NCBI GenBank assembly: GCA_946628415.1
Contig: CAMOWK010000011.1
Span: forward strand, 9,927-73,926
Direction of reading: 5' to 3'
Length of the DNA: 64,000 nucleotides
From: an uncultured Lachnospiraceae bacterium
GTDB taxonomy: Bacteria; Bacillota; Clostridia; Lachnospirales; Lachnospiraceae
Made by a program: the position numbers and the translations under genes. Shown here piece by piece: positions 4,980 through 42,167 of the stretch. The notes under the pieces were generated by a model. The model had not been told where the DNA came from, searched no databases, and saw only the letters and a list, made by a program, of their open reading frames with translations. The first letter of the stretch is position 1. Each line of letters begins with the position of its first letter.

Positions 4980-5116
4980 TTATCACTTACTCCTGATTGT
5001 CCGGCATCAACCTGCTTACAAACAAACTGTATCATATGTAGGTCAAGCTGCCAACATTTATCTATAAGTCATCAAATTTATATTCTACGTAATAATAACG
5101 AAATGGGCTTCTTATT

Positions 5117-5854
5117 TCAAGCTTTACTTTGCTTAATTTTAATGGCTATTGTGTCATGTATCATAACAAAAATCTGGCTCACGGATATCTTTGATCTTCT
5201 CTGGGTACTGCGTTTAGGTCTCAGTACGACAGGAAGTTCAATGATCTTAAGCCCGGCTTTTGCCGCCATCGCAAGTATCTCAATATCAAATGAAAAGCGG
5301 TTTATAGTTGCATTTTCAAATATGCTCTTTGCCTTTTCCATTCTGAATACTTTAAGTCCGGTCTGAGTATCTTTTACATTAAGCGAAAAAAGCAGTTTTA
5401 CCATACGATAATAAACATAACTCATAAGGCGCCTAAACGGTGAGTATTCTATATTCGAACTCTTATGGAGTTTTGAACCTATAGCAATATCAGCATTTTC
5501 GTCTATAAGCTTTCTCAAAAAGTTTTCCAGCTGATAAGGTGGAAGATCAAGATCCGAGTCAAGAAATGCAGCATATGTGGAATCGGCATACATCATACCT
5601 TTTCTCACCGCATATCCTTTACCACGGTTTTTACTGTAGGAAATGACTTTTATACGTCTGTCCATATTTCTTGCCCTAAGCATTTCCTTTTTCGTACTGT
5701 CACTGCTCCCGTCATTTACGGCAATTATCGCAAAATCATTCGTAAATCTGCTTATCTCATCTGCCGCCTGAAGAAGATTATCACATATGATACTTTCTTC
5801 GTTATATGCCGGCATTACCACGGAAAGATATTTTTTCCTGCTGTTATCTTCCAC
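5117..5854 (-). CDS. GT2 glycosyltransferase, polyprenol-phosphate-sugar synthase (DPM1-like)
   Basis: SVVMPAYNEE, NDGSSDST, NRGKGYAVRKG, FLDSDLD, DTQTGLKVF, RFSFDIEIL. Start trimmed to the GTG overlapping the rfbB stop. Confidence 0.88.
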   Translation of the reverse strand: MEDNSRKKYLSVVMPAYNEESIICDNLLQAADEISRFTNDFAIIAVNDGSSDSTKKEMLRARNMDRRIKVISYSKNRGKGYAVRKGMMYADSTYAAFLDSDLDLPPYQLENFLRKLIDENADIAIGSKLHKSSNIEYSPFRRLMSYVYYRMVKLLFSLNVKDTQTGLKVFRMEKAKSIFENATINRFSFDIEILAMAAKAGLKIIELPVVLRPKRSTQRRSKISVSQIFVMIHDTIAIKIKQSKA

Positions 5855-14617: not shown

Positions 14618-16156
14618 TTATTTTGCAATTCTGCCCTCTTTTTTACCATAATTAATATAATGCAGATAATACTGTTTATTATCAGAGCCAAATGCCCTTC
14701 GAAGGTCAATATATCTTGACCTGTATGCATTTAGATTAAAGTCCGGCTTTGCCTGACGTCCTTCCTTCATTCCATAATTTACGAAATGCTGCAAGGTTGC
14801 TATATCGTCATTCCCGAAAGCCTTTTTTATATCAGGATATCTGCTTGTGTAATAGTAGTAATCATATACGGAGCTGTAATCAACGCCATTCATTTTAGTT
14901 ACGGCATTTTTAACCGATTTGGTTCCCGTTGCCTTTCTTCCTTCATTGTAACCATATCTATTATAATGCTCATAATACTTAGCTAAGTCATTTCCAAAAG
15001 CAAGTCTGAGATCCTGATATGCATACTTATAGGAATATACATCAAATGTATCGCTGGACTTTCTGCCTTCCTTCATGCCGTACTCATTGAAATGCTTAAT
15101 GTACTTCTCATTATCATTACCAAAAGCCTTCACAAGATCAGCATTATTCTTTTTATATGTGCTTATATTAAATACTGCGCTTCCCTGTCTTCCTTCTGAA
15201 AGGCCATAACTCTCGTAATGCTTTGTAAGTTTTTCAGCATTTGAACCGAATGCTCTTCTAAGATCTGTATACTTGGCAGCATAGAAGCTTGTATTAAGTG
15301 TAGGTCCGAATGCCGGAAGTGCTCCAAGTCTTCCTTCCTTTTTACCGTAATTCACAAAGTGTGCCAAATACTTAAAATTATTACTTCCGTAAGCTCTTCT
15401 AAGATCTGCATTGGCTGACTTATAGTAATTAACATTAAAATCAGCTGAAGCCTGACGGCCTTCTTTTATCCCATATGCTATCCAGTGAACCTTAAGGAAT
15501 GTATCATTCATACTCCTGAGATCTGCATATTTGTTTCTGTAGTAAACCGGATCAAAAACCGCTGAGCCGAGATATGTCTTATTTGTAAACCACGGATTAC
15601 CTGCTGACCATCTGTCAGTAGGATCCCAGTCTCTAAACGGTGATGGACATGGACCTATCTTTGGGTTTTTAGGTTTCCCAAGCGGTCCGGTTGAAGAGCT
15701 TGCCATTACCGTCACAGGCGTTCCATCAGGGCAATTATCATATATATACTTTGCCCCTTCAACATTGAGCCTTACACATCCATGTGAAGCATTCTGACCA
15801 AGTATATCGTAATCTGCAGTATAAACAGACCCAGCATCGCCAAACCTTGCACAAGGTACTGAATGAAACAATACTGAGCCAACAATACGGTTTGTATACT
15901 GCCCCGCCGAATTAAGAAGATGTCCCCATCTGGCTCTTCCGGACAGTCTGAATGTTCCATGAGGAGTTGCTGTTTCAGCCCTTCCCGCTGAACAAATGAG
16001 TGACTTAACCGCGGCACCATTCTTGTATATGGTAACAACATTTGACTGTGTGTTAACATATATATGCCAGCCACCGGCTGCTTCAGCTTTTAAATCCGGA
16101 ATAAAGCTTAACAGCATTGCACATACAATTATAAGCGATAATAGTTTTCTTTTCAT
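14618..16156 (-). CDS. Secreted L,D-transpeptidase (YkuD) with seven C-terminal ~40-aa 'Y.DL..AFG...HY..YG.KEGR' repeats
   Basis: Signal peptide MKRKLLSLIIVCAMLLSF..AEA; IYVNTQSNVVTIY, TPHGTF, LFHSVP, SHGCVRL (catalytic H/C). An alternative GTG start lies at 16165. Confidence 0.88.
   Translation of the reverse strand: MKRKLLSLIIVCAMLLSFIPDLKAEAAGGWHIYVNTQSNVVTIYKNGAAVKSLICSAGRAETATPHGTFRLSGRARWGHLLNSAGQYTNRIVGSVLFHSVPCARFGDAGSVYTADYDILGQNASHGCVRLNVEGAKYIYDNCPDGTPVTVMASSSTGPLGKPKNPKIGPCPSPFRDWDPTDRWSAGNPWFTNKTYLGSAVFDPVYYRNKYADLRSMNDTFLKVHWIAYGIKEGRQASADFNVNYYKSANADLRRAYGSNNFKYLAHFVNYGKKEGRLGALPAFGPTLNTSFYAAKYTDLRRAFGSNAEKLTKHYESYGLSEGRQGSAVFNISTYKKNNADLVKAFGNDNEKYIKHFNEYGMKEGRKSSDTFDVYSYKYAYQDLRLAFGNDLAKYYEHYNRYGYNEGRKATGTKSVKNAVTKMNGVDYSSVYDYYYYTSRYPDIKKAFGNDDIATLQHFVNYGMKEGRQAKPDFNLNAYRSRYIDLRRAFGSDNKQYYLHYINYGKKEGRIAK
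14621..15556 (-). repeat. Seven protein-level repeats F(D/N)..YY...Y.DL...(F/Y)G....L..H(F/Y)..YG..EGR
   Basis: Seven EGR-terminated units counted in the translation. Confidence 0.85.
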
Positions 16157-16200
16157 CCGACGCACCCCATTTCTGATATACTGCTACTACTATTTATATC

Positions 16201-17003: not shown

Positions 17004-17876
17004 CTAGCAATCCTCATCATCAATAAACTCTGTACCATCAAGATATTTTATATACTTTGCCGCCTGATTCCACCTCTTCGACTCTGGAGGTAGTGTCATA
17101 TAGTCATCTCCGTAAAAATGACTGAGTATTTCTTTGTAGCCTACCGGAATTGGCATGGCAGTATCTTCGAATTCAGAATCTATAAGTTTTGAAAACCATT
17201 TTTTCTTATAGATTTCAAAACTGTCTACACATGTAAGCACATATCCGGTTTCCTTATTCTCATATTTTAACATAGTTTTGTTAAAATAATCAGATAGTTT
17301 TTTGGGAGTAATCCCAAATATTTTACACAAATGCTTTATAAATACCTTTGCCAGATATTTGAACTGTCCGGGTAATCCTTTTTCAAAAACCACTGTCTTT
17401 TCACATGATGTAACCGTATACAAAGCCTTTATGATTTTGATTTTAGTATCAATATTATGAAGTATATTATTATCAGCAGGTATATTGTAATAAGGGAATA
17501 TTTCGACAAATATACCCATATCGTCCATTCCGCTTTCCTTTGCGAGACGCGTTACAAATCTGGAATTCTTATAATAGAATTTCGGAATAATTATATAATA
17601 ACCGCCGGGAGTCACTGAAGGAGCATAAAAGCCGTACTCATCAAATTCCTCCTTCGGTATACTGAGGAATTTTATATAATCACTGTAAAACATTCCTATA
17701 TCCATATCATCGTCCCAGGGTATAAAGCCCTTATGCCTTACCGCCCCCAGCAGCGTTCCTGAAATGGCAAAAAATTTAATATCATACTTTTCACATAGAC
17801 TGCGAAATTTATTATATACAGTTATTATATCTCCATGAAGCTTTTTTAAATCTTCTTCATTATACTTCTTGTACAT
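17004..17876 (-). CDS. LicD-family nucleotidyl/phosphotransferase
   Basis: SGTLLGAVRHKGFIPWDDDMDIG, IFVEIFPY, FEDTAMPIP, YGDDYMTLPP. Confidence 0.92.
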   Translation of the reverse strand: MYKKYNEEDLKKLHGDIITVYNKFRSLCEKYDIKFFAISGTLLGAVRHKGFIPWDDDMDIGMFYSDYIKFLSIPKEEFDEYGFYAPSVTPGGYYIIIPKFYYKNSRFVTRLAKESGMDDMGIFVEIFPYYNIPADNNILHNIDTKIKIIKALYTVTSCEKTVVFEKGLPGQFKYLAKVFIKHLCKIFGITPKKLSDYFNKTMLKYENKETGYVLTCVDSFEIYKKKWFSKLIDSEFEDTAMPIPVGYKEILSHFYGDDYMTLPPESKRWNQAAKYIKYLDGTEFIDDEDC

Positions 17877-19127: not shown

Positions 19128-19982
19128 CTATTCATCCTTAAATTTAAGTTTATATGGGTAATGATTTTTTCTTTTATCTTCAGGTGGAAGTTGCATAAAA
19201 TCACCGAACATTTTATTCAGGTTATCTTCTATCCTGTTGGGGAACTTAAGATCAAGTCCCTCAAACTTAATGGTTTTCAGCGGATAAATATCATCATAAT
19301 CATAAATATTAAGATAAGCTGTTGTATCACAGAGAAAGTCAAACCTCTTTGCCCCGGCTTTCCCATTATACTGAACACTTACTCTGTGGCACATCTGATA
19401 AAGCCACTTTGAAGAGACATTTAATGTCTTAAGGAACCAGTGAATCATCCCACATACAGGCTGAACTATCTTTGCCTTTATTCCGCTAAACGGAAGGACA
19501 GGATGAGGAATGCTTCTTAGAATAAGGAGCTTGCTCCAGAAGAAAGCCTGAACTGCCTGCCTCCTGAACTTCTTTTCATCATCCGGAATCTGATCAAAAG
19601 GGTATAAATCAAGGAAGATTCCAAAAGGAAGATCAATATCCTTAAGCGGCCACTCGACAAACTCAGTCCCTTTCATCGTCCATCTTGTAGTCAGCAGTGG
19701 ATAATTCGGATAATTTTTCCCGTTCATAAGAAAATACTTGTCACCGTAATACTTATCCGCAAGCCGAAGGAATCTTTCATAATCCTTACGCGGCATAGCT
19801 ATATCAATATCATCATCCCACGGTATAAAACCACCGTGTCTTATAGCCCCGATTGCCGTTCCTCCAACGCCGAAATAAGTAATATTATTTTTTTCACAAA
19901 GATCGAGGAAATCTCTGAGTATTTCTAATTCTGCCTCATGTATTTTCCTGAGCGTTTCCTCATCATAACTTCTATCTGTCAT
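19128..19982 (-). CDS. LicD-family nucleotidyl/phosphotransferase
   Basis: GGTAIGAIRHGGFIPWDDDIDIAMPRKDYERF, IFLDLYPFD, FGDFMQLPPE. Confidence 0.93.
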   Translation of the reverse strand: MTDRSYDEETLRKIHEAELEILRDFLDLCEKNNITYFGVGGTAIGAIRHGGFIPWDDDIDIAMPRKDYERFLRLADKYYGDKYFLMNGKNYPNYPLLTTRWTMKGTEFVEWPLKDIDLPFGIFLDLYPFDQIPDDEKKFRRQAVQAFFWSKLLILRSIPHPVLPFSGIKAKIVQPVCGMIHWFLKTLNVSSKWLYQMCHRVSVQYNGKAGAKRFDFLCDTTAYLNIYDYDDIYPLKTIKFEGLDLKFPNRIEDNLNKMFGDFMQLPPEDKRKNHYPYKLKFKDE

Positions 19983-22110: not shown

Positions 22111-24156
22111 TTACGGGAATGGACGTGTTGCTCCATAAATATATGGATGCGGTCCACCTGCTACACTGTATTTGTCAGTTACCCTTGGTGGCCATGACTC
22201 TATAACTCTTCCGTTTCCAAGGTAGATTGCAACATGAATGATAATGTTACCTCTTGCACTTCTGTAATATATAAGATCTCCTCTTCTGCGATTGTTATAG
22301 CTGACATGCTGCATAGGAGTCTGATTGAAAAGTGTACGTGAATCATACTCATTCTGCGGAAGCGCATGATGTGCCGGAGTAGCAGGATATGGATTGAAGC
22401 CACCCGCATACAGGCACTGCATTACGAGGCCGCTGCAGTCAGCCGCGCCACCGGGCTGAGTAGATTTACATATTCTGTACTGTGTCCCCATGTAATCATA
22501 TGCACGGGATATCATAGCTTCAATGCGTTCCTCTCTCGAATTGAGATTACCTGTCTTCATAGGGCTTACATAGTATCCCGGAATTGAAACAAGTGTCGGT
22601 GCATTTGTCTGAACCGTATAGATATTCCCCTTACCGTCGTATCTGTACCATGTACCCTTATACTTTAACCATCCATTCTTGTAATTCGGCTTATATAAGT
22701 CATTTGAAAGAGCCTTCTTTTCGTTATAAAGATTATTATCGTAAGAAGCCTTTCCCATTCTTCCTTCTTTAAGACCATACTTTACAAAGTGATTAAGAAC
22801 TGCATCTTCATCTGTTCCAAAAGCATTCTTTATATCACCATATTTTGTAACGTAGAAGTTGTAATCAAAGAGTGCTGCATAATCACCAAGTATATGCTTT
22901 GTCTCATAACCCCTCATTGAAGTTACGCCGCTTGTGACTCTGCCTTCACGGGCACCATACTGGATGTAATGCATATAGTATTTAGGATAATCAGTCTTAA
23001 ATGCATTTCTAAGATCTTTATATGCATAGATGTATGATACAACATCAAACTTTGCATTACCCTTTCTCTGCTGCTTCATACCCTGATTTATAAAATGATC
23101 GAGAGCACTTATATCATTGCATGCATACTGATTGGCAATATCTTTATTATTTGCTATGTAATAATTAAAATCATAAACCTTACTGTAATCAACTCCATCT
23201 TTAGAAGTTACAGGATCTTTTATTGATTTACAGCCACTGGTTCTGCGTCCCTCTTTCTTGCCGTATTTAATATAATGCTCATAATACTTTTTATACTCAG
23301 TACCAAATGCCTTGCGGAGATCCTTATACTCCATAGCATACGAACTCACATCAAAAGTTGAGTTTCCTCTTCTTCTCTCATTCATTCCATACTTTACGAA
23401 ATGTTCAATAAGTCCGTAATCGTTATAAGTTCCGATAACCTTGCGAAGATCAGCATAATGACTTACATAATATTCGTAATCATAAACATCTTTATAATTA
23501 AGACCATTGTATGAAGTAGTAGGACGGATCAGATTTGCTTCTCCAACTGTCTTTCTGCCTTCCTTTTTTCCGTATTTAAGATAATGCTCATAGTACTTTT
23601 CATTATTATTTCTAAATGCATTTCTTAGGTCGGGATATGACTTCATATAAGAATAAACATTGAAGTTTTCACTTGCAATTCTGCCTTCTTTCATTCCGTA
23701 TGTAATAAAATGGCGAAGAGTTTTTTCCTGATCATCTCCAAATGCTTTTTTCAGATCTGCATACTTATTTATGTAGTAGTAATAATCATAAACATCACTG
23801 TAATCTACACCATTATAAACACTTAGTCCCGGTGCAGGTTTTGCAGCAGTTTCATCCTTTAAAACAGGTTCCTGAACAGGCTCAGATATTGAAATAGTCT
23901 TTGTATTTTTTTCATAAACTATTCCCTCTCCAATTGCTTTAGCCTTTTCTTCCGGCTTTACCTCTTTACTCGCGGTTTCATCAGAAGCCGCTGCATCTTC
24001 CGCCTTGGCATCTGTAGACGATGCTTCATCCAGAAGAACAGTTTCTTCAGTAATATCAGTATTCTCTGCAGCATAAGCCGGACTGCCACATAAAAGAGCC
24101 ACTGAAAAAACTGCGCCAAAACATGACATAACAAGTTTCTTACTAAGATTTTTCAT
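22111..24156 (-). CDS. Secreted NlpC/P60 peptidoglycan endopeptidase with seven 'HY..YG.KEGR' repeats
   Basis: RBS AAGGAGG and signal peptide at MKNLSKK (24156). C-terminal YMGTQY..ADCSGLVMQC..GDLIYY..HVAIYLGNGRVIES. One GW..Y.GTWYRYD choline-binding-like unit. Confidence 0.9.
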   Translation of the reverse strand: MKNLSKKLVMSCFGAVFSVALLCGSPAYAAENTDITEETVLLDEASSTDAKAEDAAASDETASKEVKPEEKAKAIGEGIVYEKNTKTISISEPVQEPVLKDETAAKPAPGLSVYNGVDYSDVYDYYYYINKYADLKKAFGDDQEKTLRHFITYGMKEGRIASENFNVYSYMKSYPDLRNAFRNNNEKYYEHYLKYGKKEGRKTVGEANLIRPTTSYNGLNYKDVYDYEYYVSHYADLRKVIGTYNDYGLIEHFVKYGMNERRRGNSTFDVSSYAMEYKDLRKAFGTEYKKYYEHYIKYGKKEGRRTSGCKSIKDPVTSKDGVDYSKVYDFNYYIANNKDIANQYACNDISALDHFINQGMKQQRKGNAKFDVVSYIYAYKDLRNAFKTDYPKYYMHYIQYGAREGRVTSGVTSMRGYETKHILGDYAALFDYNFYVTKYGDIKNAFGTDEDAVLNHFVKYGLKEGRMGKASYDNNLYNEKKALSNDLYKPNYKNGWLKYKGTWYRYDGKGNIYTVQTNAPTLVSIPGYYVSPMKTGNLNSREERIEAMISRAYDYMGTQYRICKSTQPGGAADCSGLVMQCLYAGGFNPYPATPAHHALPQNEYDSRTLFNQTPMQHVSYNNRRRGDLIYYRSARGNIIIHVAIYLGNGRVIESWPPRVTDKYSVAGGPHPYIYGATRPFP
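22759..23790 (-). repeat. Seven protein-level repeats of the same family as in 14618-16156, alternating A/B types
   Basis: Units YDYYYY..Y.DL...HF..YGMKEGR alternate with F(D/N)V.SY..Y.DL...YYEHY..YG.KEGR. Confidence 0.85.
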
Positions 24157-24199
24157 TTTCTCCTCCTTAACTAGTATTTTTCTTAGCTTTATCTTACAA

Positions 24200-24760
24200 T
24201 CAACCTTGCAGGTTGTCGTTATCACTACCGGTATATGCATACCATATATATTTCTGTTTTTCTTTTTCGGAATACTCCACTTTTATATCAAGGTCATTTA
24301 TGGAAGCTCTTTCATATCCATTTTTATCATAGAACCTTATAGCGCGTTCATTATCCGGCTCAACACACCAGTATATAAGCTTGAGTCCCAGATCTCCTGT
24401 TGCAAGCCTCAGCATTTCTTTCATCGCATAGGCTGCGAATCCTTTGCCGATAGCTTCCGATCTGAGCGTTATTCCAAACTCGGCATTGCCAAGATGTCTG
24501 TCAATCTCTTTCAGGCTGACAGTTCCCATATACTTATCACCTTCTCCGGCAATGGCAAGATGAACTGCCCCTCCTATATTAACACCAATATTGCTTTTAA
24601 TCAGCCCCGATGCTATCCGGCTCATTTCAATAAACCTAACACAGTCATCAAGCGTCATTGTCTTAAAATCCTTTTTAAGATTTCCGACAACTGTCTCATC
24701 ATGCATCCATTCAAGCATAAGCGGTGCATCTTCCGTCTTAAGTTCCCTAAGCTTCATCAC
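24200..24760 (-). CDS. GNAT (RimJ/RimL/PseH-like) N-acetyltransferase
   Basis: LRELKTEDAPLMLEWM, AEFGITL..EAIGKGFA, NERAIRFYDKNG. Confidence 0.85.
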   Translation of the reverse strand: MMKLRELKTEDAPLMLEWMHDETVVGNLKKDFKTMTLDDCVRFIEMSRIASGLIKSNIGVNIGGAVHLAIAGEGDKYMGTVSLKEIDRHLGNAEFGITLRSEAIGKGFAAYAMKEMLRLATGDLGLKLIYWCVEPDNERAIRFYDKNGYERASINDLDIKVEYSEKEKQKYIWYAYTGSDNDNLQG

Positions 24761-27849: not shown

Positions 27850-28971
27850 TTACAGAGTATTCAGATATTCCATAAAATTACGTTTGTTTTCAATTGCTGT
27901 TGTCGTCGGGCGGCCAAGATCATCTCTCGCACCAATCCCGCATTTCACTTCAATAAAGCTTAATTCTTTTTTATTCTTAGCACCAAGAAGTGCATCATCT
28001 AATTCTTCATAAGAATTAACGGAAACCACATTCGGATATCCACATGCTTTTGCAATACCGACAATATCTATCTTACCTGCAACCGTCGGCATTCCACCAA
28101 CTGTTTCATGTGCGCCGTTATTGATCACTATATGTATCAGATTATCCGGTTTTTCAGCACCTATAACAGCTAATGCACCCATATGCATAAGAGCCGCTCC
28201 GTCACCGTCTATACACCAGATTCTTTGATCTTTTTTGTTAGATGCTACACCTAATGCTATGGAAGAAGAATGTCCCATTGACCCAACGGTAAGAAAATCA
28301 TATTTATGGCTCTGCCCATTTGCCTCTCTTATCTCAAAAAGCTCTCTGCTGGCTTTACCCGTTGTGGATATGATCGGGTCTTCACCTGATACCTTTACTA
28401 TATGCTTTATAATCTCTTCCCGGAGCATACTGTTATCATTTGAATAATCCACCTTGGGAGCATCTGAAAGAGCACCTTTTCTGATTACAAAAGCCACATC
28501 TCTGCCTTTACCAAGAACATCCCTAAATCCGTCCATAACATTTTGGACTTCTTCATCAGATGTATCGCTTCCTATTACGAATGTTTCAATCCCCATATCC
28601 TGAAGGAGCTTAACAGTCACTTCACCCTGGTATATGTGCTGAGGCTCGTCATGAATTCCTGGCTCACCTCTCCACCCTATAATAAAGATGACCGGTATAG
28701 CATATACTTTGTCATTCAGTAAGCTTGCAACAGGATTTATAATGTTTCCTTCACCGGAGTTCTGCATATAAACAACAGGAACCTTTCCGGTTGCAAGATG
28801 ATATCCTGCGGCTATTCCTACAGAATTACCTTCATTTGCCGCAATCACATGATGCTCTGCATCTATTCCATATGTCGCCATAAGATAATTGCAAAGTGCC
28901 TTAAGCTGCGAATCAGGGACTCCGGTGTAAAAATCCGAATCTATAATACTGACCAGTTTATCAACTCTCAT
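27850..28971 (-). CDS. aepY: Phosphonopyruvate decarboxylase
   Basis: [49 protein letters not shown], ThDP motif DGDGAALM. Confidence 0.95.
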
Positions 28972-28989: not shown

Positions 28990-30177
28990 TTAATTATCGC
29001 TCTTTGTTTGCGGAAGTATGATCTCATCTATTATAAATTTAGCTGTTTTATCTATCTCATCGTATGAAACAGTTTTGGGTAGTTCCACTCCAAATGCATT
29101 CTTTACCTTTTCGAGCAGAGCATCTGTATATATAAGTTTTCCATCGCGAACGTCTTCAACACCATCAAGTGCCATCGACGCCCTGTCAGCCTCATTCATT
29201 TCTTCAAAACTGAATACGGAATCATCAATCCATGCACCAAGCTTTCCGTCTCTATAACCGACAATAACAGGATAACCACCGATATTACCGTCAAAGCCCG
29301 GAATGAAAACCCTCTGCTGCTCACCTGTTCTTACAGCATCTATCACCGACATAATAATCCTGAAATTTGATGATGCATTCATCATATTTCTTGTCTGGTC
29401 AACAGGCATAGGTATATGACATGCAGCGTAAATTCTGTCATGAGGGATATCCTTTTCTTCACCTTTATAATAAACTTTAAGCGGAAGACTTACTCCCTCA
29501 GTCTGTCCTTCCTTGCTTATACATACATCATGAAAATGTCCTGCGGCAAACATGATATCAACATTCCAGTAATCATCAACGCCCAGAATATCTGCCACGG
29601 CAAACCTCATACGCGGAACAAGATGATTAAGATTACCCGACCCAAAATCAGGATATGCTTTGCCTGCGCTCTTAAGCCACGGAATTACAGCATCCGAGTA
29701 CGAAGTATTAATAACAATCGCATCTGTATCCGCCTTATCACATGCTTCCATCACATTCTTCGTAAAACGGATTGCAAGAGGACTCCATATTCCGTAAGCC
29801 CTTATATTTGCCCAGCTTATACTTCCGTATTTAAGACCCGGGTAAGCCCTGCTGGAATTAACGATAAAATCAGGTCTGTACTTTTCAATTGCATCCTTTA
29901 CGGCATCAATATCATTTAAATCAACGCCTCCACATACTTCAATGTGAGACTTATTCCTTTCCCTTATAAGGCCTGCTACCCGTGCAATATTCACCTTTGT
30001 CGTAAGCTTATCCGCATTTCTTCCGACAACGATAACACTTATAGCCGGATCGTTCTCGCTTATAAGATAATCCAGAAGATACGAGCCTACACTGCCGAGG
30101 CCTATAATCATTACTTTTATATCATTTTCTTTAATATGCTGTTCAACTGTTTCAAGTCTTTCTGCTAATGTTTTCAT
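28990..30177 (-). CDS. Uncharacterised NAD(P)-binding oxidoreductase, possibly LDH/MDH-like fold
   Basis: N-terminal Rossmann motif VMIIGLGSVG; INTSYSD, GSGNL, GHFH; C-terminal PGFDGNIGGYPV. Overlaps its neighbour by 4 nt. Confidence 0.6.
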   Translation of the reverse strand: MKTLAERLETVEQHIKENDIKVMIIGLGSVGSYLLDYLISENDPAISVIVVGRNADKLTTKVNIARVAGLIRERNKSHIEVCGGVDLNDIDAVKDAIEKYRPDFIVNSSRAYPGLKYGSISWANIRAYGIWSPLAIRFTKNVMEACDKADTDAIVINTSYSDAVIPWLKSAGKAYPDFGSGNLNHLVPRMRFAVADILGVDDYWNVDIMFAAGHFHDVCISKEGQTEGVSLPLKVYYKGEEKDIPHDRIYAACHIPMPVDQTRNMMNASSNFRIIMSVIDAVRTGEQQRVFIPGFDGNIGGYPVIVGYRDGKLGAWIDDSVFSFEEMNEADRASMALDGVEDVRDGKLIYTDALLEKVKNAFGVELPKTVSYDEIDKTAKFIIDEIILPQTKSDN

Positions 30178-30929
30178 TTTTCCTCCCAGTAAGAAACTAT
30201 CTTTCTGTAATCTTCTCTTGTATTACAATTGGTCCATCTGCCAAGTCCGACCAGTTCTATATCAGTAACAGAGTCGATGTAATCCTGTATGATCTTTAAA
30301 TTAGTATCTCCCTTTGCTTCGGCAAAAAACTTTTCATTTGCCAGTTTCAGTTTGTCTATATCTTTAAATTTCCATGTCTGCCCGGAATTAAAAATGCATG
30401 AAAAAGCTTTTTCAATCATAAGCATGCCATGGGAGCTGTTAAATGCATAGCAAAACTTTTCTCTATCATCCTTATAAAGCACTACCGCTTTATTTGCATA
30501 AATGGGTTCATAATTATATGTGAGTACATTTTTATCCGAGTCCAAAATCCTGCCAAATGACTCGTCATCTATATCCAGATCCCCTTCCACAAAAAGGATC
30601 TCATCCGGATTCTTAAGAAATGCCTCTTTTAGTCCGAGATAAAGACTGTAGCCTGAAGCAAGATCACTGAATCGGTCATTATAGACAAGCTGTACTTTTT
30701 CCCTTAAATCACTTTCAAGCCCGTCCATATAAGCCCTTAAATCATCAAATTTATAACCGCCCACAACTACTATCTGATCTGCATAAGAACACTTTTTCAA
30801 CATCTGATAAATAAGTGTACTTTTTTCATCAGTTTCGGTGTATATGGCTTTCAGTTTTTTTTCTTCCTCCGGAATATCTTTATTAAACCTGCTTGATATT
30901 CCGGCAACAGTAATAATAGCAATTTTCAT
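30174..30929 (-). CDS. LicC/PntC-like NTP transferase (cytidylyltransferase)
   Basis: IAIITVAGISSRFN (variant of the ILAAG.GTR glycine loop), VVGGYKF, LFVEGDL, NCNT.EDY. Confidence 0.75.
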   Translation of the reverse strand: MKIAIITVAGISSRFNKDIPEEEKKLKAIYTETDEKSTLIYQMLKKCSYADQIVVVGGYKFDDLRAYMDGLESDLREKVQLVYNDRFSDLASGYSLYLGLKEAFLKNPDEILFVEGDLDIDDESFGRILDSDKNVLTYNYEPIYANKAVVLYKDDREKFCYAFNSSHGMLMIEKAFSCIFNSGQTWKFKDIDKLKLANEKFFAEAKGDTNLKIIQDYIDSVTDIELVGLGRWTNCNTREDYRKIVSYWEEK

Positions 30930-30952: not shown

Positions 30953-31960
30953 TTAATTATTCTTTTTAAGGTAATTGGTTATACACTCATCAAGTCCTAT
31001 ATCGAGTGTAACCGCCGGTTTCCATGCGGTTCTTGTCCTTATCTTTTCTGTAGAAAGAAGTCTCCTCTCCGGATCCGACTCTCTGTAACCGCTGAATTCT
31101 ATAACAGGATTATCTATCCCCATTTTTGCGGCACATTTTTTAGCAAGATCTATTATCGATATTTCTTCATCTGTAGCCACATTGTAAACAGTTCCGTCAA
31201 GAGCTGAGTCAGTCCCGGCAAGCGCCAGCACAGCACTGCAGCTGTCATAATTATTCAGGAAAGTCCTTCTGTTTTTTCTGCTGTTTTCAAGAAGAACAAC
31301 TTTTCCATTATCACGGAAGCTGTTAATAATAAACGGTATGATATGTTTCGGGTAACGTTCGTCTTTTGAATATACATTGGCAAAACGGATTGAACACCCT
31401 TTTATTTTTCCTTCGTCAACCGCATCCTTGATAAAGAACTCGGTAAGAAGCTTTCCTGTTGCATAGCTGGTTCTCTGACTGTGTTCAGCAACAGACATTG
31501 TAAGATAATCACTTTCCTTAACACCACCGTTTTCATTCCATGAATTCATGGAATAAACTTCTGATGTTGAGCAGTTGATATACTTTCCGGCACCGACTCT
31601 TATAGCCTGCTGAAGGAAATTATTCATACCTTCCACATTTGTTTCAAATGTCTCATAAACATGATAGAAATGCTCGGTATGAACTACTGCCGCACAGTTG
31701 ATATATATAACTTCGTCATAATCATTTTTAATACTGTTAACGCGGTTCTCAAAATCCTGCATTTCCTCTTTATTATTAAGGTCATATTCAAAGAATTCAA
31801 ATCTTTCGTCATTAATATGATCTGAAACAGTGTCTATGGAAGAAGCATAGAAATTATCAAAACCAAGTATATGATCAGTACTGCCATCTGTAAGTATCTG
31901 TCTAACAAGTTCATTTCCCGTCATTCCCGTGACACCACTTATTGCATAAAGTTTACTCAA
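30953..31960 (-). CDS. Extended SDR, NAD-dependent epimerase/dehydratase (UDP-GlcA decarboxylase-like)
   Basis: ISGVTGMTG, STSEVYS, RTSYATGKL (YxxxK), IRFANVY, GTVYNVA. Confidence 0.85.
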   Translation of the reverse strand: MSKLYAISGVTGMTGNELVRQILTDGSTDHILGFDNFYASSIDTVSDHINDERFEFFEYDLNNKEEMQDFENRVNSIKNDYDEVIYINCAAVVHTEHFYHVYETFETNVEGMNNFLQQAIRVGAGKYINCSTSEVYSMNSWNENGGVKESDYLTMSVAEHSQRTSYATGKLLTEFFIKDAVDEGKIKGCSIRFANVYSKDERYPKHIIPFIINSFRDNGKVVLLENSRKNRRTFLNNYDSCSAVLALAGTDSALDGTVYNVATDEEISIIDLAKKCAAKMGIDNPVIEFSGYRESDPERRLLSTEKIRTRTAWKPAVTLDIGLDECITNYLKKNN

Positions 31961-31972
31961 GTTTTTATCCTC

Positions 31973-32719
31973 CTATATTCCGTTTGTCAGTCTTATCTTA
32001 TAAAATTCATCTATTGAATCAGGAAAAAGTGACTGTTCAAATTCTATATTATACGAAACCGCCCTGAGCTCCACTCTTTTTGACGGAAGCGTAAGTACCG
32101 CATACTGCGCATATGGATTTTGATTTCTCGGCTGTCCCACAGAACCCGGGTTTATAAACATAACCGCTTTCTTATTTCTCATATCCGGATTATCCACATT
32201 ATAAAACTTGGTAAAGCAGTGCGAATAATGTGAATGGCCGCTAAGGACGATATCATAATCCTGATAATCTCCTCTTAGATTTTCAGGAAGTATGGCTTTC
32301 CAGTAATTATCCTCCAAAGAGCCATGAACAGCAAGTATTCTGTTTCCTAAAAGGCTTATCTCATCTATACCTTTTTTATTCATCTTTTCGCGTATATACT
32401 TTACGGAAGCACTGCTAAGATTCCTTGCCGTATACTCTGCCATAACCCGTCCCCTGTCAGATGAAAGTCTTTCCAGATCCTTATCAACTACAAGCTTCTC
32501 ATGGTTTCCCCATATGTTAATAAGAATTCTATTCTTCCATTTACCATTTTCAAGGTGAGTCAGCTTCTCTATTATTTCACTTGATCTCATACCGTAATCT
32601 ATACAGTCACCTAAGATCATTATACCCGAAAAATCCTCATCCCTGCAGTCATCCATCACAGCATCAAATGCGCTGACATTTCCATGTATGTCTGAGAGGA
32701 TTAAATACTTTTCTTCCAC
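31973..32719 (-). CDS. Calcineurin-like metallophosphoesterase
   Basis: ILSDIHGN, LGDCIDYG, WGNHE, VHGS, SGHSH, NPGSVGQPR all intact; GTG start with AAAGGA RBS. Confidence 0.9.
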   Translation of the reverse strand: MEEKYLILSDIHGNVSAFDAVMDDCRDEDFSGIMILGDCIDYGMRSSEIIEKLTHLENGKWKNRILINIWGNHEKLVVDKDLERLSSDRGRVMAEYTARNLSSASVKYIREKMNKKGIDEISLLGNRILAVHGSLEDNYWKAILPENLRGDYQDYDIVLSGHSHYSHCFTKFYNVDNPDMRNKKAVMFINPGSVGQPRNQNPYAQYAVLTLPSKRVELRAVSYNIEFEQSLFPDSIDEFYKIRLTNGI

Positions 32720-32755
32720 TTCATATCCTTTCAAAAACACTTTTTCTATCAGTTT

Positions 32756-34054
32756 TTATATTTCATCTATGAGTGTTATGATTTCTTTTATCGGCATAAG
32801 CCTGTCATCAACCTCTTTAGCCCTGTGATACTTCAGAATATCTTCTGCAGTCTTCTGCATGGCAGGAAATGCTGAACGTGTCAACTGATTTGCATAGATA
32901 ACGATATTTACTCCGTGACTTGCGAGTTCAGACTCGGTAATGGAATTGAATGATGATGGTACAACTACTATAGGAGTAGTCTTATCCTCCGCTCTAAACT
33001 TATCGCAAAACTCGATAATCTCTGCCGGGTCTTTCTTTCTGCTGTGAATCATAATGCCATCGGCACCTGCCGAAACAAAAGCCCTTGCCCGACTAAGGGC
33101 ATCTTCCATTCCACGTTCAAGAATCAGGCTTTCAATCCTTGCTATTATCATAAAGTCATCAGTCAGCTGAGCCTTTTTACCTGCAGCTATCTTAGCACTG
33201 AAATTCTCTATACTGTCCTGTGTCTGCTCAACCTCAGTTCCAAAGAGACTGTTCTTCTTAAGCCCTGTCTTATCTTCGATAATCACAGCGGAAACACCCA
33301 GTCTTTCAAGTGTACGTACTGTATATACGAAATGTTCCGTAAGTCCGCCCGTATCTCCATCAAAGATAATCGGCTTTGTTGTTACTTCGGTAATATCTTC
33401 GATAGTACGGAATCTTGACGTCATATCAACCAGTTCAATGTCCGGTTTACCTTTAGCGGTAGAATCACATAAACTTGATATCCACATCGCATCGAACTGA
33501 TCGAGTTTTCCGTTTTCACCTTCAACTACAGTCTTCTCAACTATAAGTCCCGTCAGTCCGGAATGAGCTTCCATCACTTTTACGACAGGCGTCATTTCAA
33601 TCAGCTGTCTAAGTCTCTTTCGTCTGTACTCAGGCATTGAAAGCTTTTCCTTCAGCTGAAGGTCAATCTTCCTTACACTTTCATTATAGGTGTATGGAAT
33701 ATCTATAATCTGTCCGCCGTAAGAATTAAGAAGCTTTTCAACGTGTGAACGTATAGATGCTTCGGCTCCGGTCTTCCAGTTATCACCATGTATAATATAA
33801 TCAGGATGAAGCAATTCTATAACATCATTATAAAGCATATCATCCTGAAGAATAACGTCATCCACACCGTCGATTCCCCGGTACAGATTCATCCTTTCTT
33901 CTTCAGTAGTAGTGGGAAATTTGGTACAGCGCATCATTTCCCTGTCACTGAGACATCCAACAATCACCCTGCCATATTCCTTTGCATGATTTATGATATT
34001 AAGATGTCCCTCATGTATAACATCAGTACTGAAACATGTATAAACTGTTTTCAT
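32756..34054 (-). CDS. aepX: Phosphoenolpyruvate mutase with N-terminal cytidylyltransferase domain
   Basis: TDVIHEGH (HxGH) domain; PepM signature EDKTGLKKNS; DGDTGG, MIHSR, IYANQL.RSA. Confidence 0.96.
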   Translation of the reverse strand: MKTVYTCFSTDVIHEGHLNIINHAKEYGRVIVGCLSDREMMRCTKFPTTTEEERMNLYRGIDGVDDVILQDDMLYNDVIELLHPDYIIHGDNWKTGAEASIRSHVEKLLNSYGGQIIDIPYTYNESVRKIDLQLKEKLSMPEYRRKRLRQLIEMTPVVKVMEAHSGLTGLIVEKTVVEGENGKLDQFDAMWISSLCDSTAKGKPDIELVDMTSRFRTIEDITEVTTKPIIFDGDTGGLTEHFVYTVRTLERLGVSAVIIEDKTGLKKNSLFGTEVEQTQDSIENFSAKIAAGKKAQLTDDFMIIARIESLILERGMEDALSRARAFVSAGADGIMIHSRKKDPAEIIEFCDKFRAEDKTTPIVVVPSSFNSITESELASHGVNIVIYANQLTRSAFPAMQKTAEDILKYHRAKEVDDRLMPIKEIITLIDEI

Positions 34055-34099
34055 ATCAGTTCCTCTCAAATAGTCTGTTTATAGTTTTATAGTCACTGA

Positions 34100-35590
34100 T
34101 CAATCATTTTTCTTACGTTTAATCTTATTAACCAGCTGACCTGTTATCTCAATCACAAGTTTCTCCTTTATAAGAAGCATATAGACCAGATACGCACCAA
34201 AGAAAAGCGTTCCGGATATAGCCATTTTTATAAATGAATCAAGCTCTGTATTCGTACTAAAGCTGAAAAACTTAAATGAAATGCAAAGTCCTGTACCAAG
34301 AAGTGTCGCAATTACTACATGAATCCATTTCACATCGCAGAAAAGCTTCGCCTTTAAATCCCTGGTAATATAAAACTGATAAATAAGCACGCTTATTTCA
34401 GCTATCAGTGTTCCAAAAGCAGCGCCTGCCGCCCCAAACTTAGGTATGAAAAGTGCATTGAGCACAAGGTCGATTACTGCTCCTATGATTTCAGAATAAA
34501 GAACTTCCTTTTCTCTGTCCAGTGGCACAAGCATCTGAATTCCCGTTACATTTGTAATTCCGATAAGAAGCACCGTCGGCATGATTATCATCATCGCAGG
34601 AGCAGCCGCTTTATAATCATTACCCGAAAGAAACAGTATCCCTTCTTTTGCATATAAGATAAAGTACACAGAAATCGGAACTGCAATCAGTATTATAAAA
34701 TGCATCGTCTTTCTGAGTATTCTGTAAAACTCATCCATCATCCCTTTGTCTACATAAAGGGATGCCCTCGGAAGCAACACGGTACTTACCGATGTGACGA
34801 TAGAAAGAAGTATATTCTTAAGCTTTACGGCTGCACCGTACAGTCCGACCTCTCCATCATCTTTGATGAAACCGATCATGACTTTGTCCAGATTCGTATA
34901 AATAACAGTTGCTACAGACATTGCAAAAAATGTAAAAATCATCTTAAGATGCTGCCTGAAGTTATAACCGCCTATCGGTCTCAGATATACGAATTTCCGA
35001 AGATTTATAAAATTCAGTACATTGGAAGCTGAACTTGCAAAAATACTTATCGCACCATAAAGTACGACATCTTCTCTCTTTTTAACAAACAGCAGCATTG
35101 CAGCAACTGCGATCACCTTGAATATAAGAGACCTTACTGTTATATACTGATACTTTTCAAGTCCCCTGTATAACCATTCTACACCTATAGCCCCAAGAAA
35201 TATGGTCGCTCCCATTATAATAAAAAGGGTAAGATCCCTTCTCAGTCTTGGTATCATGACTATGGCAAACCCATATACAACGTAGACTATAAGGCATGTA
35301 ACCATGTTAATTGTCAGAAGTTCATGGGTAAGTCTGGTAAGCTTTTCTTTATCATCCCTCACTTTTCCCGCGGCTTTTATGCCATACATGGGAATTCCCA
35401 GCTGTGCAAACATAGAAAAGTAAGTAACTATGGATGCGACAAACTCAACTTTTCCGGTTCCTTCTTTAAAGATAACTCTGGATATATACGGAAAAGTAAT
35501 AAAAGGAAAAATGAACTGCGACATTGTAAGTATCGCACTCATTATCATATTCTTTTTGACTGATGTTTTCTTAATATCGCTATCATTCAT
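34100..35590 (-). CDS. Wzx flippase
   Basis: FPFITFPYISRV, QLGIPMYG, VGLYGAAVK, LIPKFGAAGAAFGTLIAE; about 12-14 TM. Start trimmed to ATG 35590. Confidence 0.9.
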   Translation of the reverse strand: MNDSDIKKTSVKKNMIMSAILTMSQFIFPFITFPYISRVIFKEGTGKVEFVASIVTYFSMFAQLGIPMYGIKAAGKVRDDKEKLTRLTHELLTINMVTCLIVYVVYGFAIVMIPRLRRDLTLFIIMGATIFLGAIGVEWLYRGLEKYQYITVRSLIFKVIAVAAMLLFVKKREDVVLYGAISIFASSASNVLNFINLRKFVYLRPIGGYNFRQHLKMIFTFFAMSVATVIYTNLDKVMIGFIKDDGEVGLYGAAVKLKNILLSIVTSVSTVLLPRASLYVDKGMMDEFYRILRKTMHFIILIAVPISVYFILYAKEGILFLSGNDYKAAAPAMMIIMPTVLLIGITNVTGIQMLVPLDREKEVLYSEIIGAVIDLVLNALFIPKFGAAGAAFGTLIAEISVLIYQFYITRDLKAKLFCDVKWIHVVIATLLGTGLCISFKFFSFSTNTELDSFIKMAISGTLFFGAYLVYMLLIKEKLVIEITGQLVNKIKRKKND

Positions 35591-35606
35591 AATAAGAGTT
35601 TTTAGT

Positions 35607-36416
35607 TTACTCCTCTTCTGACTCTTCCACAGGCATATATACTGACTGCCCGTTTGACATATATATATTATAGCCACAGGTATTTTTATATATTTCAAAT
35701 CCATATTGGAAAAGTGTTACATCATCTACAGGATGTTCCTCTGCGGCAACTATAAAATTAAACCCACCGTCAACAGCCGCTTTAAGCACGATATCATAAT
35801 CCGGCTCTTCAGCTTCCAGAGCCTTACTTACGGAGCTCCTCTGATAATCCGTATAAACTATATATCCCTCTATATCCCTGCCATACATTGTTTCGATATT
35901 GGCATTATAAGCTCTCATATGCCATGTCATATTGTGAGGACAAATGCATCGCGGAGACTCGTCAGCCGAAAGCATTGTGTCAGCAACACTAACCGCCGTT
36001 TCCGAAAGTCCGTACTGATTGGTTCTTTTACCGAACTCTTCACCGGCAAAGATATCTGCCCCCAAAAATACTATGACCGCTGTAACAAATGCCATCATAA
36101 AAAGCTTATTTCTTAATCTGTTCTGACTATTCACAAGTTTTGAAATGGCAAGCGCAATGATAATTATATCCGGAATGAGCCAGAATATTCTCCAGTACGA
36201 CTTAAACGAATCTTTGAGGACATAGTAAACTACGGGGTTCAGGACCACAAAAATCATCAGAAGCACCGGGTATATAAGCTTTTTTCTAAGTTCTTTTTCA
36301 GAAACAAAAAGATAAAGTCCCGCTATAACGGCAAATGCAAGTATTGCCTCATCCTCATAATAAATATTCAGTTTTCCAAGCACCTCTGTGAAGAGGTTCT
36401 TCGCAACCGTAATCAT
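35607..36416 (-). CDS. Hypothetical membrane protein (partner of the DUF6077-like protein)
   Basis: Four N-terminal TM helices (LNPVVY, YWRIFWLIP) followed by a soluble C-terminal domain. Confidence 0.65.
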   Translation of the reverse strand: MITVAKNLFTEVLGKLNIYYEDEAILAFAVIAGLYLFVSEKELRKKLIYPVLLMIFVVLNPVVYYVLKDSFKSYWRIFWLIPDIIIIALAISKLVNSQNRLRNKLFMMAFVTAVIVFLGADIFAGEEFGKRTNQYGLSETAVSVADTMLSADESPRCICPHNMTWHMRAYNANIETMYGRDIEGYIVYTDYQRSSVSKALEAEEPDYDIVLKAAVDGGFNFIVAAEEHPVDDVTLFQYGFEIYKNTCGYNIYMSNGQSVYMPVEESEEE

Positions 36417-39193: not shown

Positions 39194-40255
39194 TTAATCA
39201 TTTAAACTTGACAGTATACTAAGTGTACGGGTAAGCCCCGTCTCAATGTCATATCCCGGATTCCATCCGATTTTTTTCAGCTTGGTACCATCCAGTCTTG
39301 CCTTTGTAGCTTTACTGTAGCCCGATGCCTCCACGCTGTCAGGAAGTTCAAATACAACCTTCCTTCCGGCATACTTTGCCAGAATACCGGCTAAATCCTT
39401 TAAGGTAATATCAGATTTTGCATCAGCTATATTGTAAGCATGTCCTGATTCTCCCACTAGAAGCACAGTAAGAAGTCCGCTTACTGCATCAGCCACATAT
39501 GTATATGAATAGAACTGATTGCCCTCGGATTTCAGAACTATATCCTCCCCGTTTAATGCCTTTTTTATGAACTGGCTTATAGCCTTGGTGTCGGATAAAA
39601 GCATAGTAGGTCCGTAAGTTCTTGTAAGTCTCGGAATCACTGTATCAAGCCCTTTTTCAGCCATGTACGCCTGACAGAGTGCCTCTCCGCATCGCTTACT
39701 TTCAGGATAACCTGCCCTGAGAGTATTGGAATTTATGTATCCCACATAATCCTCATCAAAAAACTCTGTGTCGCCTCGGTTTTCACCATAAACTTCATTT
39801 GAAGAAGCGAAGGCAAAACGACTGCATCCGTGATCTACCGCAAAATCAAGCATATTCTTAAGCCCTATTACATTGGTCGTGATTGTCGAAATCGGCTCCG
39901 TTGCATACTGAAGCGGATGTGTATTTGATGCAAGATGAAGAATGTAGTCTACATCCATAAGCTCACACCTTAGAGCTTCCTTTACATCATACTTTACGAA
40001 AACCAGCTGTCCGCTTTCAAAGAAAGAAGGTTTAAATCTGCTTTTCATCCTTTCCTCGCTGCGTCCCAGAGCGTATACCGTGCAGTTAAGTCCGTCTTCA
40101 TTTTTTTTCATTATTACGTCTATAAGGAAACTCCCTATAAGCCCTGTTGCTCCGGAAAGCATAAGCTTCTTTCCTCTAAGCTTTTCCCACGGAAGTTCCA
40201 GCGATGCCACTCCTGTTACATCATCCTTATACAATTCATTTTCATACAGAGTCAT
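39194..40255 (-). CDS. NAD-dependent SDR, probable CDP-ketose reductase (Abp2/Mnp2-like) for CDP-alditol synthesis
   Basis: LSGATGLIGS, HLASNTHP, SSNEVYG, YPESKR, RLTRTYGP; near an IspD/TarI-like gene. Confidence 0.75.
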   Translation of the reverse strand: MTLYENELYKDDVTGVASLELPWEKLRGKKLMLSGATGLIGSFLIDVIMKKNEDGLNCTVYALGRSEERMKSRFKPSFFESGQLVFVKYDVKEALRCELMDVDYILHLASNTHPLQYATEPISTITTNVIGLKNMLDFAVDHGCSRFAFASSNEVYGENRGDTEFFDEDYVGYINSNTLRAGYPESKRCGEALCQAYMAEKGLDTVIPRLTRTYGPTMLLSDTKAISQFIKKALNGEDIVLKSEGNQFYSYTYVADAVSGLLTVLLVGESGHAYNIADAKSDITLKDLAGILAKYAGRKVVFELPDSVEASGYSKATKARLDGTKLKKIGWNPGYDIETGLTRTLSILSSLND

Positions 40256-40285
40256 AACCTGCCTCCTCATAATAATATCTGTAAA

Positions 40286-41450: not shown

Positions 41451-42167
41451 TTACTTCAGCCATCCATCCTTATCAGACTTCAGATAAGCCTTAAACAGTT
41501 CCAGATCATCCTTTGTTGTGAGCTTGATATTCTTGTCAGAGCCCGCAGCAAAATAGAGCCTTACACCCAGTTCAACCATCATAGTATTGGTATAAGAAGA
41601 ACCGTATATTCCTACTTCTTTTTCATATGCTTCGTGGTATTTATCATCCAGCAGACTGAACTTATATGCCTGAGGCGTAGAAACTCTTCTGAGAGTCTCT
41701 CTCGGAATATATTTTACAGTACTTATATCATCGTCGACTACAAAAATCTGTTCATTATAAGGCATTGATGTTACGGCATTTCCATACTTTCTGCACTTAA
41801 CTATTACATCTGATAGAACCGATTCATCTACAAGAGGTCTTATTCCGTCATGAATTATGATTATATCATCCGGAGAAGCTTTATCCTCAAGATTATATAC
41901 GCCGTTACGGATTGATTCCTGACCTGTGCTGCCACCGGAAACTATCCATTTAACCTTGTCAATATTAAACTGTTTTACGTATGCCCAGACAACCTCATGC
42001 CATCCGTCTATACATACAACTTCTATCGCATCAATATCCGGATGACGCTGAAAACCTTCCAAGGTATATACAAGAACAGGTTTATCATATACATTTATAA
42101 ACTGCTTTGGGATATCCTGTCCCATTCTGCTGCCTGAACCACCGGCAATAATAACTGCTATATTCAT
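41451..42167 (-). CDS. IspD/TarI-family cytidylyltransferase (Abp1-like), CDP-alditol pathway
   Basis: IIAGGSGSRMGQDIPKQF, GQESIRNG, IHDGIRP, STPQAY, NIKLTT.DD. Confidence 0.88.
   Translation of the reverse strand: MNIAVIIAGGSGSRMGQDIPKQFINVYDKPVLVYTLEGFQRHPDIDAIEVVCIDGWHEVVWAYVKQFNIDKVKWIVSGGSTGQESIRNGVYNLEDKASPDDIIIIHDGIRPLVDESVLSDVIVKCRKYGNAVTSMPYNEQIFVVDDDISTVKYIPRETLRRVSTPQAYKFSLLDDKYHEAYEKEVGIYGSSYTNTMMVELGVRLYFAAGSDKNIKLTTKDDLELFKAYLKSDKDGWLK

Follow-up and report, generated by a model that had tools for sequence, protein, structure and literature searches.

The gene at positions 28990-30177 (minus strand) of the window, the 64,000-nt stretch of an uncultured Lachnospiraceae genome analyzed here, codes for a real, widespread and uncharacterized enzyme of the LDH fold that marks a new branch of phosphonate biosynthesis. 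Homolog, profile and fold searches identify its 395-aa product, hereafter the orphan, as an NAD(P)H oxidoreductase. We propose that it could stand at the branch point of a third pathway leading from phosphonoacetaldehyde (PnAA), as a PnAA:(phospho)serine reductive aminase. The open reading frame starts with ATG and has the limits given in the first-pass annotation of this DNA. Since 2,981 relatives were recovered at E≤1e-3 (90% clustering), it is not a chance reading frame. The first-pass annotation had predicted a dedicated role in phosphonate biosynthesis for a family without any known such role, and this prediction stands.

The orphan is the fifth gene of a six-gene operon transcribed from the minus strand, in which every gap is shorter than 30 nt. 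The preceding genes code for a cytidylyltransferase-PEP mutase fusion (CT-pepM, 32756-34069; EDKxxxxxNS motif, TIGR02320 over cut-off), a calcineurin-like metallophosphoesterase (31973-32740; PF12850), an extended SDR (30953-31960) and a DUF6564/MobA-LicC-like nucleotidyltransferase (30174-30929; PF20202 E 1e-91, PF12804 weak). As had been noticed at first sight, the orphan is translationally coupled to the nucleotidyltransferase gene, whose TGA overlaps the orphan ATG (30177-30175) by 4 nt (ATGA), with a GGAGG ribosome site at 30186-30182, four bases 5′ of the ATG (together 30174-30186). It also directly precedes ppd (phosphonopyruvate decarboxylase, 27850-28971; TIGR03297 over cut-off), which begins 18 nt 3′ of the orphan gene. 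With a true PepM and Ppd both present, the operon qualifies as a phosphonate biosynthetic cluster. It is flanked by rmlA and a gene for a Wzx-type flippase (34100-35704, minus strand); with the latter immediately upstream, the cassette belongs to a surface-polysaccharide locus. Two LicD-family transferase genes lie about 9-12 kb downstream (19128-19982 and 17004-17876, both minus strand); the product of the former is a candidate for transfer of the head group to the glycan. Promoters and terminators were about as frequent as expected by chance (26 versus 22.6).

Elsewhere in the window, a second SDR with an SNE motif (39194-40270) accompanies an IspD-type cytidylyltransferase (41451-42167). 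This pair probably supplies a CDP-polyol to the LicD enzymes and would compete with the phosphonate as LicD donor. The window also codes for a membrane protein of 1,485 aa whose C-terminal part is a long stretch (about 700 aa) of YD-like repeats (43659-48116), and for two secreted proteins (14618-16165 and 22111-24240) that by eye have a tandem Tyr/His-rich repeat in common; the N-terminus of one is L,D-transpeptidase-like and the C-terminus of the other NlpC/P60-like.

Family models over cut-off did not recognize the orphan. None of 104 orphan-family members matched Pfam Ldh_1_N/C or any NCBIfam family over cut-off, a single-sequence PDB search with the orphan found nothing, and it matched neither Fe-ADH PF00465 nor D-2-hydroxyacid dehydrogenase PF02826. 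Experimentally based names were not found among its relatives, and a profile search with the distant clade returned no characterized member. The likeness to LDH/MDH suspected in the first-pass annotation was nevertheless borne out by more sensitive comparisons. The match of the family profile to LDH (E 1.2e-7) spans the catalytic domain, and hhalign aligned the two families with 96-98% probability. An alignment-based AlphaFold model of high confidence (pLDDT 96.8) returned only MDH and LDH among its top 50 Foldseek matches (best MDH, E 1.2e-9). VIA ranked MDH/LDH first (Z 18-23; best Z 22.7, rmsd 3.1 over 276 residues), followed by GH4 glycosidases (Z 15-19) and saccharopine-type enzymes (Z 10-11). 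The closest structures (PDB 6qss, 4plt, 1hyh and 3wsv) share the whole two-domain fold with the orphan (Z 21-23, rmsd 3.1-3.4 over about 280 residues) at 12-19% identity. The orphan thus belongs to the LDH/MDH structural superfamily, with a Rossmann domain and an LDH-type C-terminal alpha/beta domain.

The saccharopine dehydrogenase label found in databases was rejected, as PF03435 covers only aa 22-109, the Rossmann part, and lies below its cut-off. Likewise, the match to the 8deb profile is confined to the first 96 profile positions, the comparison with saccharopine/carboxyspermidine-type enzymes reached Z 11.4 at rmsd 5.2, and no full-length match including the catalytic domain was found.

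All four motifs that had been read from the sequence were found again, on the minus strand: the GxGxxG dinucleotide-binding motif (GLGSVG, aa 26-31, 30085-30102), INTSYSD (aa 156-162, 29692-29712), which aligns to the LDH NPVD loop and includes the family-invariant D162, GSGNL (aa 179-183, 29629-29643) and GHFH (aa 213-216, 29530-29541). In the established LDH numbering and residue roles, the likely catalytic histidine is H214, which aligns to His195 and is nearly invariant, while R189 occupies the Arg171 position in the phosphonate clade defined below. According to the same alignment, H185, Y160 and I120 stand at Asp168, Asn140 and Arg109, none of which is kept, and R263/N264 stand at Ala245/Thr246. 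Since only part of the LDH catalytic set (His195 and Arg171) is retained, the orphan falls outside the LDH/MDH family in the functional sense. It further differs by a longer substrate loop, a C-terminal extension and Gly-Arg (G52-R53) where LDH has Asp53, a replacement that suggests specificity for NADP(H).

The relatives of the orphan fall into a phosphonate clade with R110, K116-Y117, H185, R189, K222 (K/R), C253 and R263-N264, and relatives below about 29% identity that lack these residues; this clade was delimited partly by three of its characteristic residues. In the tree, the distant group stands apart with support of 100/99, and 91% of phosphonate-clade members have C253 compared to 3% outside. 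Judged from the alignment, the basic residues of the clade (R110, K116, H185, R189, K/R222 and R263) would exceed the need of one small phosphonate, and P0130, the one homolog found without the partner genes described below, has lost K116, K222 and R263; we count both in favor of the proposed reductive amination.

The expected co-occurrence with pepM was found. Among 400 genomes of the host family, seven carry the orphan and 52 carry pepM, and all seven orphan genomes are pepM-positive. The probability of this overlap by chance, calculated by hand, is about 4e-7, a value overstated by kinship, though the seven genomes represent seven genera. The cassette is therefore present in 7 of 52 pepM-positive genomes of this sample, about one in seven. 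In 28 well-flanked loci from species genomes, pepM, the phosphoesterase and the nucleotidyltransferase were always present, accompanied by the SDR in 27, ppd in 26 and Fe-ADH in three, and never by an AEP transaminase (AEPT; 0/28). Figures for 34 metagenome loci were similar (pepM 33, phosphoesterase 34, nucleotidyltransferase 33, SDR 30, ppd 32, AEPT 0, Fe-ADH 0). Where ppd was not visible in the locus, the genome carried it elsewhere (5/5). Cases in which the module appeared to lack pepM were mostly split clusters (G007, L046, L011, L032 and L033); two MAGs, G402 and G581, gave no pepM match on contigs that are short or end at an edge.

We compared these loci with 50 pepM regions from other genomes of the family, which comprised 20 of AEPT type, 19 of Fe-ADH type, ten unassigned and one module fragment. 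The phosphoesterase, the SDR and the DUF6564 gene were found in none of the 49 sampled pepM loci without the orphan. Because these partners are constant with the orphan and absent from pepM loci that lack it, the orphan, phosphoesterase, SDR and DUF6564 gene are a four-gene unit, which stands in for the single reaction that normally follows PnAA. At 31-33% identity, G234 and the phage-like contigs L229 and L231 still have all six genes, and below about 29% identity the link to pepM is lost. The cassette also occurs in Roseburia intestinalis, rumen bacteria, methanogens and phage-like contigs; scans of IMG/VR returned no relatives. The ten unassigned regions (L094, L096, L109, L110, L117, L122, L128, L132, L137 and L138) showed no AEPT, Fe-ADH or cassette with the queries used, and eight of them no ppd within about 8 kb; they may represent further branches after pepM.

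PepM and Ppd together produce PnAA. Starting from this aldehyde, the orphan would bind PnAA and O-phospho-L-serine (or serine) and reduce the resulting imine with NADPH, in the manner of an opine-type reductive amination, to yield N-(2-phosphonoethyl)-(phospho)serine. The phosphoesterase would then strip the O-phosphate and the DUF6564 protein (or the domain fused to PepM) would attach CMP to the phosphonate, possibly in the reverse order. The UXS-type SDR would oxidize the serine hydroxyl, decarboxylate the resulting beta-oxo acid and re-reduce the product to CMP-N-(2-hydroxyethyl)-2-aminoethylphosphonate, whose head group a LicD transferase would place on the surface polysaccharide. The fold, the cassette and the residue patterns are observed, and we consider this sequence of NADPH-dependent amination, dephosphorylation, CMP activation and decarboxylation slightly better supported than not. 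We know of no LDH-fold reductive aminase, and literature searches, whose coverage of subscription journals is incomplete, returned nothing relevant on the orphan family in connection with phosphonates or on reductive amination by LDH-fold enzymes.

The choice of PnAA and O-phosphoserine as substrates comes from working back from N-hydroxyethyl-AEP, given one enzyme each of the reductase, phosphatase, nucleotidyltransferase and decarboxylase types. Fibrobacter succinogenes is reported to make an exopolysaccharide containing this compound without AEPT, and its ppm neighborhood was described as containing phosphoesterase and GDP-mannose-dehydratase-like domains, with reductive amination suggested (Li & Horsman, 10.1101/2021.04.07.438883). 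This description matches two of the orphan's partners, and the link to the product rests on it; no Fibrobacter-named record of the orphan was found. In that paper, the unclassified 'post-Ppd other' group (F. succinogenes GCF 60; archaeal GCF 869/685) likewise combines pepM, ppd, a calcineurin-like phosphoesterase and a GDP-mannose-dehydratase-like SDR without AEPT. In outline, this kind of neighborhood and a reductive amination are already in the literature. The text consulted differs from our proposal in taking ethanolamine as the amine, in naming no enzyme for the step and in giving the phosphoesterase and SDR no assigned role. That an LDH-fold family forming C-N bonds and a UXS-type SDR acting on an acyclic CMP-phosphonate together constitute a transaminase-free branch, and explain the Fibrobacter head group, seems to us an even proposition.

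UDP-xylose synthase (UXS) needs a carbinol next to the carboxyl-bearing carbon on a nucleotide diphosphate. By inspection, the part of UDP-glucuronate that runs from its C4 hydroxyl past the carboxyl-bearing carbon to the nucleoside would have an atom-by-atom counterpart in CMP-N-(2-phosphonoethyl)serine: the serine C3-OH would correspond to C4-OH, the C2-carboxylate to the C5-carboxylate, the nitrogen to ring O5, the two CH2 groups to C1 and O1, and the phosphonate to the beta phosphate. The SDR keeps T/S132, S133, E134, R163, Y166, K170, N195 and R300 in 86 of 86 sequences, and six of these in the window's enzyme (T132, S133, E134, Y166, K170 and R300) align to Thr118, Ser119, Glu120, Tyr147, Lys151 and Arg277 of human UXS, pointing to an oxidative decarboxylase. 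Ser119, Glu120 and Arg277 are described as distinctive of the UXS group of decarboxylases (PMC3438964); the window's RmlB has Thr-Asp-Glu at the T-S-E position. Human UXS1 was the best profile match of the SDR by a small margin over RmlB, and in structure searches UXS (Z 33.3) was tied within 1 with epimerases and dehydratases. While the T-S-E, YxxxK and closing Arg of UXS and ArnA decarboxylase are conserved, the partner SDR differs from both by its approximately 23% identity, a family-specific HT(E/K)(H/Y)FY motif and H206, and the acyclic CMP-phosphonate that we propose as substrate.

Serine-kinase-like neighbors and the serC of the host genome are independent hints at phosphoserine. DUF1015 proteins were proposed to be serine kinases (10.1101/2024.10.14.618325), and in two loci out of more than 100, the unrelated L171 and L231, pepM has a DUF1015 gene as its immediate neighbor. 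The L171 gene overlaps pepM by 1 nt (Pfam E 9e-73), and the L231 gene gave weak SerK and SbnI matches. L228 contains an ApgM/homoserine-kinase-like gene within the module. Separately, a housekeeping serC-serA-asd operon (G000 C1:18994-24319) continues into a DUF1015 gene, as described for SerBK.

Several observations argue against the proposed route. Neither P0130, a pepM-ppd-orphan locus without the partners, nor Vibrio phage Va2, which has no pepM, fits the full pathway. The retained His195/Arg171 pair is carbonyl-reduction machinery, and no member of the orphan family is characterized.

The LDH fold with its His195 and Arg171 equivalents would suit a plain aldehyde reductase that converts PnAA to 2-hydroxyethylphosphonate (HEP) in place of PhpC, with the partners tailoring HEP or something else. 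The orphan occupies the AEPT or Fe-ADH slot in most loci and directly follows ppd in P0130, and unrelated HEP dehydrogenase families evolved more than once (PbfG, PMC13576164). However, all 19 Fe-ADH/HEP loci lack the three constant partners, the orphan is retained beside Fe-ADH in five bacterial loci (L023, L028, L030, L033 and L150) and in L043, a decarboxylase-type SDR would be left without a substrate if HEP were the product, and the His-Asp dyad is broken. Reduction of PnAA to HEP, one of the two reactions initially envisaged for the orphan, is therefore doubtful, and we regard it as unlikely.

A rather improbable variant would keep the C-N chemistry and change the partners, either PnAA with ethanolamine or phosphoethanolamine, or AEP with (phospho)hydroxypyruvate, the classic opine reaction of an amine and a 2-oxo acid. 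The same or a related product would result, R189 at the Arg171 position suits a 2-oxo acid, and AEPT occurs in a separate cluster in G007 and adjoins the orphan in L205. Against the AEP variant, the host genome lacks AEPT, as do all 28 genome loci; if ethanolamine were used directly, the conserved UXS-type SDR would have no task.

Improbable, too, is another NAD(P) chemistry on PnAA, such as a GH4-like transient oxidation, aldehyde oxidation or acyl transfer via Cys253, or condensation with a sugar phosphate, leaving the SDR to act on a true nucleotide sugar. GH4 NAD-dependent glycosidases share the fold (Z 19.3; no GH4 Pfam match in the orphan family), C253 is a mark of the phosphonate clade, and the cassette resides in polysaccharide loci. 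Yet the position that we take to be the metal-binding Cys of GH4 appears to be G181/N182, the NADP-type signature favors net reduction, and the cassette is not accompanied by a dedicated gene for sugar supply.

Reduction of phosphonopyruvate (PnPy) to phosphonolactate by an MDH-like enzyme, the other reaction initially envisaged, is very improbable: PnPy mimics oxaloacetate, the top structural matches are MDHs, and an MDH-like PnPy reductase was predicted for Paenibacillus larvae (10.1101/2021.04.07.438883), but Ppd, an irreversible consumer of PnPy, is co-conserved with the orphan at all divergence levels, unlike in the case of the PnPy reductase VlpB, which works without Ppd, and the 2-oxo-acid site lacks Arg109, Asn140 and Asp168. 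Nor is the orphan needed to pull the PepM step, as had been supposed, since Ppd already supplies the thermodynamic pull.

Reductive amination of PnAA with (phospho)serine shares its reaction type, an NADPH-dependent amination of an aldehyde with an amine, with carboxy(nor)spermidine dehydrogenase, saccharopine reductase and opine dehydrogenases. The orphan differs from these enzymes in its catalytic domain (Z 11.4 and 10.1 versus 22.7 for MDH) and has no match to the C-terminal saccharopine domain. In its pathway position next to pepM and ppd, it resembles AEPT, the Fe-ADHs PhpC/FomC, PbfG, PhnY, RhiG and VlpB, from which it differs by matching none of their family models and by having three dedicated partners.

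About 13% of ppm neighborhoods have no known branch enzyme. The four-gene unit is a widespread alternative route to C-P decorations on the surfaces of gut microbes, and the proposed model assigns each of its four uncharacterized enzymes a specific reaction. If the model is correct, reductive amination would be a new reaction for the LDH fold, UXS-type SDRs would gain a substrate other than a sugar, and a surface phosphonate so far reported without explanation would have a named route. Should the orphan be only a reductase, it would still represent a new family in that role, a more modest result.

Distant homologs are found in other contexts. On Rhizobium, Mesorhizobium and Sinorhizobium plasmids (L056:1-9140, L058 and L059), the homolog is divergent from alanine racemase, DMT exporter and HAD genes. 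In L056 and L059 it also adjoins MmgE/PrpD, a FAD/2Fe-2S trio presumably resembling opine oxidase, and LuxR, with LuxI in L056. These loci possibly make an undescribed opine-like metabolite, and we counted the alanine racemase, HAD phosphatase, exporter, MmgE/PrpD and opine-oxidase-like trio in favor of an opine-type chemistry of the orphan. The Mesorhizobium japonicum plasmid pMLa (L058 record, NC_002679.1:92148-92957) has a pepM that scores over cut-off and is separated from the distant homolog by about 230 kb. On a Bacillus plasmid (L057:5483-13764), the homolog lies within a cluster of MFS, three ATP-grasp, aminotransferase and HAD genes without pepM, likely a peptide natural-product cluster.

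Three phage-like contigs, L229:3618-11158 (133 kb), L231:1819-14614 and L228:1-9164, carry the phosphonate cassette near genes for DNA ligase, dUTPase, SbcC, NrdD and thymidine kinase. All six cassette genes are present in L229 and L231 and four are visible in L228; a BCCT transporter accompanies the cassette in L228 and L229, and a choline kinase in L228. Vibrio phage Va2 (L055:9992-11143, MW073017.1) has a lone homolog with the phosphonate-clade residues and an unannotated NTP transferase about 5 kb upstream (4479-5270). In P0130 (ENA ERZ27236663), pepM-ppd-orphan is followed by genes for a sigma factor, a methyltransferase, a cupin, a ThrRS-like protein and a carbamoyltransferase, a divergent use of the orphan enzyme without the three partners. 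Finally, the culturable human gut bacterium R. intestinalis XB6B4 carries the orphan: in L144 (3455-16647), a cassette with the XB6B4 protein RO1_19970 lies beside a flagellin gene, together with LicD genes, a methyltransferase and a glycerophosphotransferase-family gene, and a phosphonylated flagellar glycan is a possible product.
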